Under the pieces are notes generated by a model. It was not told the DNA's origin, searched no databases, and was given only the letters and a program-made list of their open reading frames with translations. A DNA stretch of 34,325 bases. Origin: Deltaproteobacteria bacterium (GTDB lineage: Bacteria; Myxococcota_A; Polyangia; Haliangiales; Haliangiaceae). Each line of letters starts with the position of its first letter. Positions within the stretch are counted from its first letter, which is position 1. The position numbers and the translations under genes are program-made. This document shows positions 4,425 through 20,260 of the stretch, in pieces. The stretch covers positions 1 to 34,325 of the forward strand of contig JAIOQA010000083.1 of the NCBI GenBank assembly GCA_021413675.1. The letters run 5' to 3'.

Positions 4425-6449
<2,025 letters not shown>

Positions 6450-7016
6450 GGCTGTTCCATGGCGAGACCGGGAGTTCCGGTCGCGCGGACGAGCGAGAGT
6501 GATCCGCCAGGCGGGCCGCGCGAGCCGGCAGGCCTGTCGAGCGGCCCCGTCGACGACGACGGGCCCGATTCCGGACAGACCTCAGCCGGCGACGTGGTCG
6601 CCAGAGGGCGGATCGCGGGGTTGGCGATCGCGCATCATCCGCGTCGGAGCGGTCGCGGCGGATCTCGACGAGAGACCGCGCGCGACGGAGGGGTGCTCCG
6701 CCGCGGCCTAGCGACGTCCCGGAAACACGGACAGGACGCAGTAATCATGCGCGCGCACGCTCGCCGCCACGTGGGCAGCGGTTGCGCGGGGGAAGCGGAG
6801 CTTCGGCATGACGATCCTCGGGCGTCACCCTAGAGTCGCGATCACCGGATGTCAACAACCCATCTCGAAGTGACCGAGTCTGCGCCGATGATCGCGAGTG
6901 CGAGATCGCGAGATCGGGAGACCGCGGCGCGGCCGCGGGAGGGGCATCGCCCGCGCATTTTGGTTGACGATGAACCGGCGTCCGCGCTACTGGTCCGGCC
7001 ACTCAAGGAGCACATC

Positions 7017-15140: not shown

Positions 15141-16280
15141 GTGCTCGACTTGAACCAACGCGTCGTCCTGGATCGCGCGGGGTTCGCGGCGCTCCTGCAG
15201 GCGCTCGCCGATGACGGCCACGCGCTCGTCGGCCCGACGGTGGGCGACGGCGCGATCGTGCTCGACGCGATCGCCGGGATCGACGATCTCCCGCGCGGCG
15301 TCGGCGACGACCAGGCCCCTGGCCACTACCGCCTGCGCGATCGCGGCGACGCCGCGCTGTTCGGCTACGCGGTGTCGCCGCACGCGTGGAAGCGCGAGCT
15401 GCTGCCGCCGCGCGTGCCGCTGGTGCAGATCCGGCGCAGCGCGACCGGCCTCGCGATCGAGGCGGCGCCCGCCCCGACCCGCAAGGTCGCGTTCATCGGC
15501 GTGCGCGGGTGCGAGCTGGCCGCGATCGCCATCCAGGATCGCGTGCTCGCGACCGGCGCCCACCCCGACGCCGACTACGCCGCGCGGCGCGCGCAGAGCT
15601 TCATCCTGGCGGTCCACTGCGGCTCGCCCGCCGGCACGTGCTTCTGCGTGTCGATGGAGACCGGCCCCCGCGCGCGCGGCGCGTTCGACCTCGCGGCCAC
15701 CGAGCTGCTCGACGGCGAGCACCGCTTCGTCATCGAGATCGGCAGCGACGCCGGCCGGGCGATCCTCGCGCGCGTCGCGAGCCGCACCGCCACCACCGAC
15801 GACGTCACCGCCGCCACCGCCGTCACCGATCACGCGGCGACGCAGATGGGCCGCGCGATGCCGACCGCGGGCCTGCGCGATCTGCTGATGGCGAACCTCG
15901 AGCACCCGCGCTGGCAGCACGTCGCGGATCGCTGCCTCGGCTGCGCCAACTGCACGATGTCGTGCCCGACCTGCTTCTGCACGAGCGTCGAGGACACGAC
16001 CGATCTCTCGGGCGACGTCGCGACCCGCACGCGCCGCTGGGACTCCTGCTTCACCGCCGACTTCGCCTACGTCCACGGCGGCAGCGCGCGACCGTCGCTG
16101 CGCGCGCGCTACCGGCAGTGGATGACCCACAAGCTCGCGACCTGGCACGATCAGTTCGACTCGTCGGGCTGCGTCGGCTGCGGCCGCTGCATCACCTGGT
16201 GCCCGGTCGGCATCGATCTCACCGAGGAGGTCGCCGCGATCCGCGCCGCGCCCGCCCCCAGGAGCCACGCCGATGGATGA
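15141..16280 (+). CDS. hydB: [NiFe] hydrogenase (group 3b-type) Fe-S beta subunit (HydB/AsrA-like 4Fe-4S dicluster protein)
   Basis: It starts at GTG 15141. It has Cys clusters [26 protein letters not shown] and [12 protein letters not shown]. It is the first gene of a B-G-D-A gene order like Pyrococcus sulfhydrogenase. Confidence 0.82.
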
Positions 16281-16722
16281 TCTCGAACGGATCCTCAAGA
16301 CCCACCCGTTCATCGCGGATCTCATGCCCGCGCACGTGCGGTTCCTGGTCGGCTGCGCCAAGAACGTGCGCTTCCGCCCGGGCGAGTACCTGATGCGCGA
16401 GGGCGACCGCGAGGACACCCTCTACCTGATCCGCCAGGGCACGGTCACGATCGAGATGCCGCGCCCGGGCGCCGAGCCGAGCTGCCTCGAGACCGTCGGC
16501 CCCGGCGACGTCCTCGGCGTGTCGTGCCTGACGCCGCGCGCCGCCCACCTCGACTGCCGCGCGCGCGAGAACGTCGTCGCGATCGGCATCGACAACGCCT
16601 GCCTGCACCGCAAGATGGACGAGGATCCGCGCCTCGGCTACGCGATCTCGATGCGCCTGCTGGAGCGCACGTACGACCGGCTGGCGCGCGCGCGGCTACA
16701 GCACCTGGACGTGTACCGGTGA
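16273..16722 (+). CDS. Stand-alone cyclic-nucleotide-binding (CAP effector) domain protein, 149 aa, no DNA-binding domain
   Basis: A cNMP-binding beta-roll reads [27 protein letters not shown]...GPGDVLG, followed by a C-helix. It overlaps the hydB stop by 8 nt, and its own stop overlaps the next start (TGATG). Confidence 0.8.
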
Positions 16723-17558
16723 TGGCGACGAGCCTCCCGGTCGCGGCGAACGCATACGCGCTCGAGCCGATGACGATCGCGCGCGCGAGCCGCGATCTCG
16801 ACGACGTCTTCACGTTCGAGTTCGACGTTCCCGGCGGCTTCGCGTTCCGGCCCGGGCAGTTCAACATGCTGTACGTGCACGGGGTCGGCGAGGTCCCGAT
16901 CTCGATCAGCGGCGATCCGGCGACCCCGCAGCGGCTGGTCCACACGATCCGCGCGGTCGGCACGGTCACCCGGGTCATGGACAAGCTCAAGGCCGGCGAT
17001 GTCCTCGGCGTGCGCGGGCCCTACGGCGCCGCCTGGCCGCTCGACGAGCTGCGCGGCAAGGACGTGCTGGTCATGACCGGCGGGCTCGGCCTCGCGCCGC
17101 TGCGCCCGGCCATCCTGCACCTCCTCGCCCACCGCGGCGACTACGGCCGGATCACGATCCTGTACGGCGCGCGCTCGCCCGCCGACATCCTCTACCGCGA
17201 CGAGCTCGCGCGCTGGCGCGGCCGCTTCGACTGCCGGGTCGAGGCGATCGTCGATCGCGCCGGCCGCGACTGGTACGGCCCGATCGGCGTGGTCACGCGC
17301 CTGCTCGACGGGCTCCCGCTCGATCCCGACGACGGCGTGCTCCTGTGCGGGCCGGAGATCATGATGCGGTTCGCGGTCCGCGCCCTCGACGAGCGCGGCG
17401 TGCCGCGGACCAACATCTGGGTGTCGCTCGAGCGCAGCATGAAGTGCGGCGTCGGCCTGTGCGGCCACTGCCAGCTCGGTGGATCGTTCGTGTGCAAGGA
17501 CGGCCCGGTCTACCGCTTCGATCGCATCGCGCCGGCCTTGCAGGTGCGGGAGCTCTGA
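16722..17558 (+). CDS. hydG: [NiFe] hydrogenase gamma subunit (FAD/NAD(P)-binding oxidoreductase with C-terminal 2Fe-2S, HydG/AsrB-like)
   Basis: It reads MATSLPV..., has an FNR-like fold ([22 protein letters not shown]) and a C-terminal [10 protein letters not shown]. The ATG at 16722 overlaps the previous stop (TGATG). Confidence 0.85.
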
Positions 17559-18352
17559 TGTCGCGCCCCACGCTCGCGGTCTGGAAGTTCGCGTCCTGCG
17601 ACGGCTGCCAGCTCAGCCTGCTCGACTGCGAGGACGAGCTGCTCGCGGTCTGCGGCGCGATCGAGCTGGCCTCGTTCGCCGAGGCTACCTCCCACGTCGC
17701 GCCCGGACCCTACGATCTGTCGCTGGTCGAGGGCTCGATCACCACGCCCCACGACGCCCTTCGCATCAAGGAGATCCGCGCGCAGTCGAAGACGCTGGTG
17801 ACGATCGGCGCGTGCGCGACCAGCGGCGGGCTGCAGGCGCTGCGCAACACCCGCGATCACGCGGCGATGCTGGCCTCGGTCTACGCGCGCCCCGACTACC
17901 TCGAGACGCTCGCGACCTCGACGGCGATCGCCGATCACGTGCCGGTCGACTTCGAGCTGCGCGGCTGTCCGATCGACAAGCACCAGCTGCTCGAGGTGGT
18001 GTCCGCGTTCCTGCACGGCCGCAAGCCCAACGTGCAGCGCCACTCGACCTGCCTCGAGTGCAAGATGCGCGGCACGGTGTGCGTGATGGTCGCGAAGGGC
18101 CAGCCGTGCCTCGGCCCGGTGACCCACGCTGGCTGCAACGCGCTGTGCCCGACCTACGCGCGCGGTTGCTTCGGCTGCTTCGGGCCGAGCGACGCGGCGC
18201 GCCCGGTGCCGATGGCGGATCGCCTGATCGCGCTGGGCACGGCGCGGCCGGTGGTCGAGCGCCTGTTCGAGACGTTCAACGTCGCGGCGCCCGCGTTCCG
18301 CGAGGGCGCCGCCCGCGCGCGCGGCGACGCGCCGCCCAAGGATCACGAATGA
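17558..18352 (+). CDS. hydD: [NiFe] hydrogenase small (delta) subunit
   Basis: It reads [20 protein letters not shown]...GACATSGG...GCP...CLECK...[14 protein letters not shown], a NuoB-like small-subunit cysteine pattern. The start overlaps the previous stop (TGATG). Confidence 0.9.
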
Positions 18353-19641
18353 CCCGGACCATCAACGTCGAGGTGCTCGCCCGTGTCGAGGGCGAGGGCG
18401 CGCTCACCCTCGTGCTCGACGGCGAGGAGGTCGTCGACGCGCGCCTGCGGCTGTTCGAGCCGCCGCGGCTGTTCGAGGCGATGATGCAGGGCCGCGCCTG
18501 CACCGAGGCGCCCGATCTCACCGCGCGGATCTGCGGCATCTGCCCGGTCGCGTACCAGATGAGCGCGTGCCACGCGGTCGAAGATGCGCTGGGCGTGACG
18601 GTCGGCGGCGAGCTGCGCGAGCTGCGCCGGCTCCTGTACTGCGGCGAGTGGATCGAGAGCCACGTGCTGCACATGGTGATGCTGCACGCGCCCGACTTCT
18701 TCCGCGTGCCCGACGTCACCGCGCTGGCCGCGCTCCACCCCGAGCGGGTGCGCGGCGCGCTGCAGGTGAAGAAGGCCGGCAACGCGATCGTCGCCGCGCT
18801 CGGCGGCCGCGAGATCCACCCGATCAACGTCAAGGTCGGCGGCTTCTACCGCGCGCCGCGCCGGGCCGAGCTCGTGGCGCTCCTGCCCGATCTGCGCGCC
18901 GCCCTCGACGAGGCCGAGCAGCTCCTCGACTGGACGAGCACGTTCGCGTTCCCCGAGTTCGCGCGCGACTACGAGCTGGTGTCCCTGCGCCACCCGAGCG
19001 AGTACCCGATGAACGAGGGCCGTCTGGTCTCGACCAAGGGCCTCGACATCGACGTGCGCGAGTTCCGCGAGTACCTGCGCGAGGAGCAGGTGCCGCACTC
19101 GACCGCGCTGCACGCGCAGATCGTCGGGCGCGGTTCGTATCAGTGCGGGCCGCTCGCGCGGTTCGTGCAGAACTTCGACCGGCTGTCGTCGCGCGCGGCG
19201 GCGGCCGCAGCCCGGGTCGGCCTCGATCCGAGCTGCCGCAACCCGTTCCGCATGCTGCTGGTGCGCGGCGTCGAGACCATCTACGCCCTCGGCGAGGCGA
19301 TCCGCGTCATCGAGGCCTACGTGCCCCCGACGCCCGCCGCGGTGCCGCTGCCGATGCGCGCTGGCGTGGGCCACGCCGTGACCGAGGCGCCGCGCGGCAT
19401 CCTCTATCACCGCTACGAGCTCGACGACGCCGGCCTGGTCACGCACGCGCAGATCACCCCGCCGACGTCGCAGAACCAGCGCGGCATCGAGGAGGATCTG
19501 CGCGCGATGGGCCCGACCCTGGCGAAGCTGTCGCTCGAGGACGCGACCCGCCACGCCGAGCACGCGATCCGCAACTACGATCCGTGCATCTCGTGCTCGA
19601 CCCACTTCCTGACCCTCACGATCGAGCAGCGCCGGGCGTGA
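18349..19641 (+). CDS. hydA: [NiFe] hydrogenase large (alpha) subunit
   Basis: The N-terminal motif is [10 protein letters not shown]. The C-terminal motif DPCISCSTH is followed by an 11-aa extension ([11 protein letters not shown]) of the kind removed by a maturation endopeptidase. The start overlaps the previous stop (ATGA). Confidence 0.9.
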
Positions 19642-20189
19642 GCCCTGAGAAGTTGTCATCAACTTCGATCTGCTCCTGTTCCGGAGGAGATCGGGACCGT
19701 CGTCCTCGACGGGGCCGACCGATCGAAGGCGAGCCTGGAGGCGAACGCCTCACAGGCTCGTACGCGGTCATCGTCGGCATCGGCCAGGACGCCGCCGGCG
19801 ACGACGGCATCGGCCTCGCGGTCGCGCGGGCCCTGATCGCGCGCGGCGTGCCGGCGCGGCCGTGCGCGGATGCCTCGGTGCTGCTGCCGCTGTTCGCCGA
19901 GGGCCGCCGGGTCGTGCTGATCGACGCGGTGATCGGCGCCGCGCCGGGCACGGTGATGCAGCTCGATCCCGACGCGCTGGCGACCGGTCCCGCGCCGGTG
20001 TCCTCGCACGGCCTCGGGGTGCGCGAGGCGATCGCGCTGGGCCGCACGCTGTACGGCGCGGTGGCGATCGCGATCGTCGGGATCGCGATCGATCCGCCGC
20101 GCGAAGCGCGGGTCGGGCTATCGGCCGCGGTCGAGGCGGCGATCGCGCCGGCGAGCGCGCTCGCGAGCGCGCTGGCTACCGGCGGTTGA
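19638..20189 (+). CDS. Hydrogenase maturation endopeptidase (HycI/HoxW/HybD family)
   Basis: Conserved [23 protein letters not shown] and VVLIDAV motifs are present. There is no ATG upstream. GTG 19638 overlaps the hydA stop (GTGA), matching the coupling seen at the other junctions. TTG 19653 is an alternative. Either start gives an unusual N-terminal extension of about 36-41 aa before the conserved core. Confidence 0.65.
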
Positions 20190-20260
20190 CCAGCACCCTC
20201 GGTTGCGCGCGCGCGAGACGCGGGCGACGCTGGTCGCATCCCAAGGAGGGGGGCCTCTCA

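Follow-up and report, generated by a model that had tools for sequence, protein, structure and literature searches.

Group 3b [NiFe]-hydrogenases are widespread in soil and sediment bacteria, and in mycobacteria they perform hypoxic H2 fermentation. To our knowledge, the sulfhydrogenases of Pyrococcus and Thermococcus are the only enzymes of this group that have been characterized both biochemically and structurally, and all biochemistry and all solved structures of the group stem from these four-subunit archaeal enzymes. Here, we describe a DNA stretch of 34,325 nucleotides from a deltaproteobacterium of the Haliangiaceae (GenBank assembly GCA_021413675.1, contig JAIOQA010000083.1, positions 1 to 34,325; the window, meaning this whole stretch) that encodes a bacterial 3b-type hydrogenase together with a small stand-alone protein of the cyclic-nucleotide-binding (CNB) fold. 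The gene of this CNB protein keeps its position between the genes for two diaphorase subunits in many bacterial phyla, the protein lacks the residues that contact cyclic nucleotides (cNMP), and several relatives are naturally fused to the diaphorase subunit HydG.

A CNB gene inside a group 3b hydrogenase operon

The operon reads hydB-CNB gene-hydG-hydD-hydA-protease and comprises the following features.

16273 to 16722, + strand: gene of the stand-alone CAP/CNB-fold protein, 149 aa with an ATG start (PF00027 with E=3.7e-13; confident structural model, described below; 206 bits against the 101-sequence profile of the operon-linked family, a profile that includes the window sequence itself)
16260 to 16264, + strand: AGGAG ribosome-binding site of the CNB gene within the 3' end of hydB, 8 nt before the ATG at 16273, read directly in the sequence
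15141 to 16280, + strand: hydB-like gene for a 379-aa iron-sulfur subunit of the diaphorase module (Pfam Fer4_22 with E=4.5e-32; NCBIfam sulfhyd_HydB with 5e-42, below the equivalog cut-off)
16722 to 17558, + strand: hydG-like gene for a 278-aa FAD/NAD(P)-binding subunit that includes a [2Fe-2S] domain (Pfam NAD_binding_1 and DHODB_Fe-S_bind; NCBIfam PRK08345 with 8e-63 and sulfhyd_HydG with 1e-52; PDB 9nez_C, a sulfhydrogenase gamma subunit, with 2e-50)
17555 to 18352, + strand: hydD-like hydrogenase small subunit (Pfam Oxidored_q6; NCBIfam sulfhyd_ShyD with 6e-47)
18349 to 19641, + strand: hydA-like [NiFe] large subunit (Pfam NiFeSe_Hases; NCBIfam sulfhyd_ShyA with 1e-68; best PDB matches are the archaeal 3b enzymes 5yxy and 9nez)
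19638 to 20189, + strand: HycI-type hydrogenase maturation protease (Pfam HycI with E=3e-7 on the residues encoded by 19743-20186; the start is placed at GTG 19638, in a GTGA overlap with hydA)

HydB, HydG and the small and large hydrogenase subunits are all recognized by NCBIfam and Pfam, and the nearest PDB entries are archaeal 3b enzymes; the operon is assigned to group 3b on this basis, with all NCBIfam matches of the window's hydrogenase subunits lying below the equivalog cut-offs. The HydA translation carries the CxxC Ni-Fe ligand motifs RICGIC and DPCISC (within DPCISCSTH) at its two ends. A chance open reading frame (ORF) of a GC-rich genome is excluded for the CNB gene, because the 149-aa protein has 259 close homologues of near-constant length (148-150 aa in 119 of the 120 listed). 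The gene is tightly embedded. The TGA of hydB (16278-16280) falls within the CNB gene and creates an 8-nt overlap, and the ATG of hydG at 16722 is part of a TGATG (16720-16724) that has one base in common with the CNB stop codon. The sequence thus bears out the coupling on both sides that a first-pass annotation, made from the letters and a list of ORFs, had described. Via these overlapping genes, the CNB protein would be made in step with HydB and HydG.

The four subunits of the archaeal sulfhydrogenases I and II (Pyrococcus/Thermococcus HydBGDA) are homologous to those of the window (E 1e-42 to 1e-68), and HydA and HydG are matched best by PDB entries 9nez, 5yxy and 9e15. A CNB-like chain is missing from every solved archaeal 3b entry found by PDB search, which agrees with the first-pass claim that archaeal operons have no such gene; bacterial operons add it as a fifth. 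No publication on the 9nez structure was found.

Distribution of the family and its conserved slot

An exhaustive search without a profile, made over 1.84 billion representative proteins, gave 813 clusters with E<=1e-10. Of the best 150 clusters, about 100 are full-length stand-alone proteins of 145-165 aa with 31-53% identity, and members of the family score 144-236 bits against its profile. Over residues 1-149, the window protein shares 35-53% identity with about 100 representatives. Genomic context was read in a scan of one genome per species with ten query sequences of the GWSW type, which covers the branch of the family with an aromatic motif (see below); the window's own clade lies outside this census and its context was read in locus L001 only. 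At least 593 species genomes contain a family member. Among the 80 loci that were kept, at least 15 phylum-level groups are represented, including Acidobacteriota, Alpha-, Beta- and Gammaproteobacteria, Gemmatimonadota, Ignavibacteriota, Bacteroidota, Zixibacteria, Planctomycetota, Verrucomicrobiota, Actinomycetota, Nitrospinota, KSB1, Armatimonadota, Binatia and others. The CNB gene follows directly after hydB on the same strand in 76 of the 80 loci, and hydG is the next gene in all 75 loci whose contig continues, usually with hydD and hydA behind it. Both junctions have a median of -4 nt (81 loci), and overlaps of -14 and -4 recur in 32 and 25 loci, respectively; each gene was taken to begin at the nearest start codon, hence gaps are biased to small values. 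On plasmid or chromid records with a 3b-type HydA the CNB gene adjoins in 12 of 15 cases. The search for the same arrangement in other bacterial 3b operons, suggested by the first-pass annotation, was therefore successful far beyond the myxobacteria, and the idea of an unusual insertion finds no support: the slot is the usual layout of the sampled bacterial operons.

It has also been noted in three papers. Francci3_4499 of Frankia casuarinae, situated in the same slot of a 3b cluster, was described as a "small transcriptional regulator" and as a departure from the HydDB scheme (PMC11879354), the same five-gene order is listed for Rhodococcus equi with WP_013415449.1 (PMC13332983), and the 3b-cluster CNB protein of the methanotroph "M. 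acidophilus" 29 was called "HoxI" (PMC12319191). All three genes lie between those for the 4Fe-4S and the FAD/NAD(P) subunit and were matched to the window gene by position. The plasmid copies of Rhodococcus BH4 and Burkholderia thailandensis were compared with the family profile, which places them in one family with the window protein. Culturable carriers of the gene include Rhodococcus equi 103S, R. qingshengii, Burkholderia thailandensis, Paraburkholderia phenazinium LMG 2247 and Frankia casuarinae. We found no paper with a functional study of the CNB gene. Hence, the family is already present in databases and in the literature, though uncharacterized, and the window copy is a new, somewhat divergent member. 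A practical point concerns the name: thousands of database entries call the protein a "Crp/Fnr family transcriptional regulator" despite its having no DNA-binding domain.

Some loci show additional features. A metagenome-assembled genome (MAG) labelled Candidatus Bathyarchaeia (L046) contains a complete operon of the bacterial five-gene type with 44-58% identity to the window proteins; its occurrence in an archaeal-labelled bin could reflect horizontal transfer or bin contamination. A Vicinamibacterales MAG (L084, 8086-9252) has about 1.1 kb extra between hydD and hydA, where the other loci are tight. In Burkholderia (L002, 4311-5781) and Rhodococcus (L003, 1008-5120), genes for CBS-domain, universal-stress and STAS proteins, a phosphoenolpyruvate (PEP) synthase and a PfkB protein precede the operon, a hypoxia- and stress-island context like the mycobacterial DosR region.

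A fold that ends at the CRP hinge and a probably rebuilt pocket

PF00027 (cNMP_binding) is the sole Pfam domain of the 149-aa protein, with boundaries at residues 32-117 and a score above the gathering threshold. Neither the Pfam scan nor the AlphaFold2 (AF2) model contains a helix-turn-helix (HTH) or a catalytic domain, and the initial description of a stand-alone CAP-type domain with a C-helix thus stands. The model, calculated from the 101-sequence alignment, has a predicted local distance difference test score (pLDDT) of 92 and a predicted template-modelling score (pTM) of 0.86. It consists of an N-terminal helical segment, an eight-stranded beta-roll that includes a short helix at residues 83-86, a B-helix (108-117) and a C-helix (119-148). 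Two parts of the gene are of particular relevance for the function.

16627 to 16716, + strand: long C-terminal helix, residues 119-148 (30 residues, assigned by DSSP in the AF2 model), with the family motif RLxxxRLQxLDVY at its end; a probable dimerization or docking helix
16516 to 16563, + strand: equivalent of the phosphate-binding cassette, residues 82-97, without the cNMP-contact residues (alignment to E. coli CRP)

The RLxxxRLQxLDVY motif is present in the window protein, and R136, L137 and D146 are each conserved in at least 90% of the wider family. In the alignment to E. coli CRP the helix matches the CRP C-helix, and the LDVY of the family coincides with the FLDV of the CRP hinge. Best Foldseek matches are the effector domains of M. 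tuberculosis CRP, C. glutamicum GlxR and P. aeruginosa DNR (template-modelling score up to ~0.8, E ~1e-11); stand-alone CNB proteins such as 3mdp (root-mean-square deviation 1.4 A) are matched as well, and the probability is 1.0 for many CNB domains. Thus, the protein has the beta-roll and long C-helix of the CRP/FNR effector domains, while the DNA-binding domain, the cAMP-contact residues and the FNR-type Cys cluster are missing. It stops at residue 149, and no further Pfam domain or structural element corresponding to the winged HTH of CRP/FNR proteins follows. Because this end falls on the hinge position, the protein looks like a CRP/FNR regulator cut at the hinge. An origin from a CRP/FNR-type effector domain, cut exactly there, would leave a protein that no longer binds DNA.

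This resemblance invites the explanation that the protein is still a transcription-related regulator, which would act by hetero-dimerization with a full-length CRP/FNR protein. Fold and C-helix are nearest to CRP, GlxR and DNR, the sequence ends at the CRP hinge motif, and both the database annotations and the label in the Frankia paper (PMC11879354) point this way. However, an HTH is missing, the slot between two diaphorase subunit genes is kept across phyla, the protein is fused to HydG in several lineages, and no CRP/FNR partner gene is conserved beside the operon in L001-L003. We therefore give little credence to a role in transcription.

In E. coli CRP, Glu72, Arg82 and Ser83 hold cAMP. 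The corresponding residues of the window protein are Val83, Ala91 and His92, an assignment with which alignments to cGMP-dependent protein kinase (PKG) agree. Hence, the cassette Gly is kept (G82) while Glu, Arg and Ser/Thr are all replaced, and this is the same across the 119 members of the window clade (70-91% identity). The segment opens with GVS[LC] in these relatives. Its sole loop Arg, at position 89, varies freely within the clade (A/V/R/H/T), and His92 and Cys95 hardly vary at all. The corresponding sequence of the wider family is GWSWLxPPYRWxFDARA, in which mostly Trp stands at the Glu and Arg positions and the Ser position is variable. The window clade does not have this aromatic signature, and P0121, P0128 and P0140 bridge the two forms as intermediates. 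Compared to the rest of the family, the myxobacterial clade has thus lost GWSWLxPPYRW and gained the conserved His92 and Cys95. Because Glu, Arg and Ser are replaced in the clade and Trp occupies the Glu and Arg positions in the wider family, a canonical cAMP/cGMP site is, as judged from the alignments, absent in both pocket forms, and the CNB protein most likely does not sense cAMP or cGMP. The comparison with the canonical cassette that the first-pass annotation had called for thus turned out against cyclic nucleotides.

A genuine cAMP/cGMP receptor that tunes the hydrogenase to second-messenger levels seems quite unlikely in the light of these replacements. Such a receptor would be in line with the Pfam cNMP_binding match above threshold and with the best PDB sequence matches, which are the cNMP-binding domains of PKG and of cAMP-dependent protein kinase (PKA). 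The Arg that directly precedes the canonical position in most of the wider family (R90; 62 of 101 sequences) can also be counted in its favor. Against it are the loss of all three contact residues in the window protein with a variable Arg at position 89, the Trp residues of the wider family, and the fact that some CNB folds bind no cNMP, a cAMP-independent example being the trypanosome PKA-R among the fold matches. CNB-homology domains (CNBHDs) that do not bind cyclic nucleotides are also found in KCNH channels, with an intrinsic aromatic ligand, and trypanosome PKA-R binds nucleosides. Both systems share the fold and a rebuilt cassette with the window protein, and their functional context is unrelated. 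By analogy, the aromatic-rich cassette of the wider family could fill its own pocket.

The loss of the canonical ligand residues might also mean that a regulator gene has decayed here into a remnant without function. The first-pass annotation had linked this possibility to missing cassette residues and to absence of the gene from homologous operons; the first of these holds true, but many phyla have kept the gene and it is no lineage-specific leftover. At least 15 phylum-level groups share its length and about 40% of its positions, the 119 clade members are intact, and the gene overlaps are conserved on both sides. A remnant is effectively refuted by these data and has to be regarded as extremely improbable.

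Conservation extends to cysteines. The window clade keeps its length as well as Cys28, Cys95, Cys110 and His92 essentially invariant. In the wider family 66 sequences have both Cys28 and Cys110, 18 have Cys28 only, one has Cys110 only and 16 have neither (Fisher p=2e-8, a test that ignores kinship among the sequences). Since the two residues tend to co-occur, they point to a functional cysteine pair, and their covariation hints at redox control. An FNR-like [4Fe-4S] site was also considered and is not supported, as family-wide conservation is limited to two Cys and an N-terminal Cys cluster is missing.

Fusions to HydG and a putative accessory subunit

Natural fusions connect the CNB protein with the diaphorase module. 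CNB-HydG fusions occur in Acidimicrobiales and other lineages (P0196, P0271-P0280, P0292 and P0296). The Acidimicrobiales fusions form more than 10 clusters at 90% identity on contigs of up to 846 kb, and P0292 and P0296 are more diverged. The fusion gene P0196 lies directly after hydB in the three contigs that were checked. A doubled version, CNB-CNB-HydG (P0282), is present on 12 contigs within the order hydB-[fusion]-hydD-hydA-hycI-hypC. In a further variant, two universal stress protein (USP) domains precede the CNB domain in a protein of 465 aa (USP-USP-CNB; P0207; L092, 2741-4138), encoded exactly between hydB and hydG. The fusions to HydG argue for a contact of the CNB protein with the diaphorase module. 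In addition, the doubled CNB domain fits a dimer and the added USP domains fit a sensory role.

The fusions also bear on the idea that the CNB protein helps to assemble or mature the diaphorase module, acting in flavin or Fe-S insertion or as a subunit chaperone and absent from the mature enzyme. Co-encoding and translational coupling with HydB and HydG would suit such a factor, and some 3b operons manage without the gene, as expected of a helper rather than a core subunit. However, stable covalent fusion to HydG in several lineages keeps the domain on the mature subunit, and we know of no chaperone role for the CAP fold. We regard an assembly factor as unlikely.

The nearest functional precedent is HoxI of Cupriavidus necator (Ralstonia eutropha) H16. 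In this soluble hydrogenase HoxI is a CNB-domain homodimer on the HoxFU diaphorase and is described as the NADPH activation site (PMC3702609, PMC3189943). HoxI and the window protein are both small, stand-alone CNB-fold proteins that have no HTH, their genes each belong to the structural operon of a cytoplasmic NAD(P)-linked [NiFe]-hydrogenase (group 3d, NAD+-reducing, in the case of HoxI), and neither has the canonical cassette Arg, HoxI having TPHSLS at this place. HoxI dissociates from its enzyme at high salt and alkaline pH. The differences are equally clear. HoxI keeps the cassette Glu, where the window protein has Val83, its gene sits after the protease gene hoxW and not between diaphorase genes, and its partner HoxFU is Complex-I-like and unrelated to the AsrAB/PyrK-like HydBG. 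Orthology to HoxI, as stated for the methanotroph protein (PMC12319191), was rejected. The two proteins share 18% identity (BLASTP E=2e-4), and HoxI scores 50.7 bits against the family profile, close to E. coli CRP with 44.5 and far from the family members. Because of this low identity, the CRP-level profile score and the different operon position and diaphorase partner, HoxI is a functional analogue and not an orthologue. NAD(P)-linked [NiFe]-hydrogenases thus appear to have acquired CAP-fold proteins on two occasions.

Taken together, we slightly favor an accessory or regulatory role for the CNB protein, as a non-catalytic and probably dimeric subunit that sits on HydG/HydB and does not sense cAMP or cGMP. 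It would attach to the diaphorase module, probably as a dimer via its long C-helix. Its former cNMP pocket would have been rebuilt, Trp-rich in most of the family and containing His and Cys in the myxobacterial clade, which makes cAMP/cGMP sensing unlikely. Upon another signal it would probably modulate or stabilize the NAD(P)H-side module, in a role parallel to that of HoxI; a pyridine nucleotide or the thiol redox state are our leading guesses for this signal. The first-pass proposal of a regulatory sensor on the diaphorase module therefore survives in part: docking is backed by the HydG fusions, whereas sensing of cAMP or cGMP is at odds with the replaced Glu, Arg and Ser/Thr of the cassette.

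Several observations weigh against an accessory subunit. Direct evidence for a CNB chain is lacking in any purified 3b enzyme, and PDB searches gave archaeal entries only, with no solved bacterial 3b enzyme that contains such a subunit. An AF2 model of a natural CNB-HydG fusion shows both domains with confidence, but has a pTM of 0.64, a disordered linker (153-182, 30 residues) and no resolved interface. The pocket residues differ strongly between the window clade and the rest of the family, and no single ligand can be proposed. Four family members with the GWSW motif, from Actinomycetota/Mycobacterium MAGs (L058, L066, L082 and L086; ~6001-6460), lie away from hydrogenase genes, none of which is found within 6 kb; they represent a paralogue among stress and hypoxia-type genes. 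On a plasmid of Streptomyces sp. NBC_01340 (L088, 3102-7329) hydB is followed by hydG at a distance of about 130 nt with no CNB gene, and two close relatives gave no CNB match in a match search alone, their loci being unread. In M. smegmatis the beta and gamma locus tags of Hyh are consecutive, and no Mycolicibacterium match is found among the homologues of the Rhodococcus CNB protein; Hyh is probably without a CNB gene. Hence, the fifth gene can be absent from bacterial 3b operons. Given its position in 76 of 80 genomic loci, its presence in 12 of 15 plasmid and chromid records and the Streptomyces exception, the CNB gene is the usual, not the universal, fifth gene of these operons.

A more far-reaching version, which we put forward tentatively and consider rather doubtful, is that most bacterial 3b hydrogenases consist of five subunits. 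As the fifth of these, a CRP/FNR-derived sensor that does without cyclic nucleotides would use the rebuilt pocket (Trp-rich, or with His92/Cys95 in the window clade) and the covarying Cys28/Cys110 pair to couple the NAD(P)H-side module to the pyridine-nucleotide, cofactor or thiol-redox (O2) status. If true, fermentative H2 production would have a built-in post-translational switch that is lacking in the archaeal model enzymes. Should the CNB protein prove to be a true fifth subunit, current models of the bacterial enzyme would be incomplete in composition, cofactor specificity and redox/O2 regulation, and heterologous expression for biotechnology should include the CNB gene. According to a genome paper, the NADP dependence of bacterial 3b enzymes was never tested (PMC6688271).

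Further family members were observed outside the hydrogenase operons. Stand-alone tandem CNB-CNB proteins of 300-350 aa carry the GWSWLxPPY signature (P0129, P0144, P0147, P0158, P0160, P0198 and P0244). P0158 has no hydrogenase gene nearby on its 14.9-kb contig and adjoins an outer-membrane factor/RND efflux system, and the contigs of P0129 and P0144 are too short to show the context. These tandem proteins have no bearing on the role in the operon. Around the paralogue of the four Actinomycetota/Mycobacterium MAGs, candidates recognized from the N-termini of the ORFs include a wax-ester/triacylglycerol (TAG) synthase-like protein, a USP-like protein and a 1213-aa pyruvate:ferredoxin-oxidoreductase-like protein. 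In the window itself, directly downstream of the hydrogenase operon, lies a gene for an 834-aa homologue of the eukaryotic major vault protein (20258-22762, + strand; Pfam MVP_shoulder with E=4e-25 and Vault_3).

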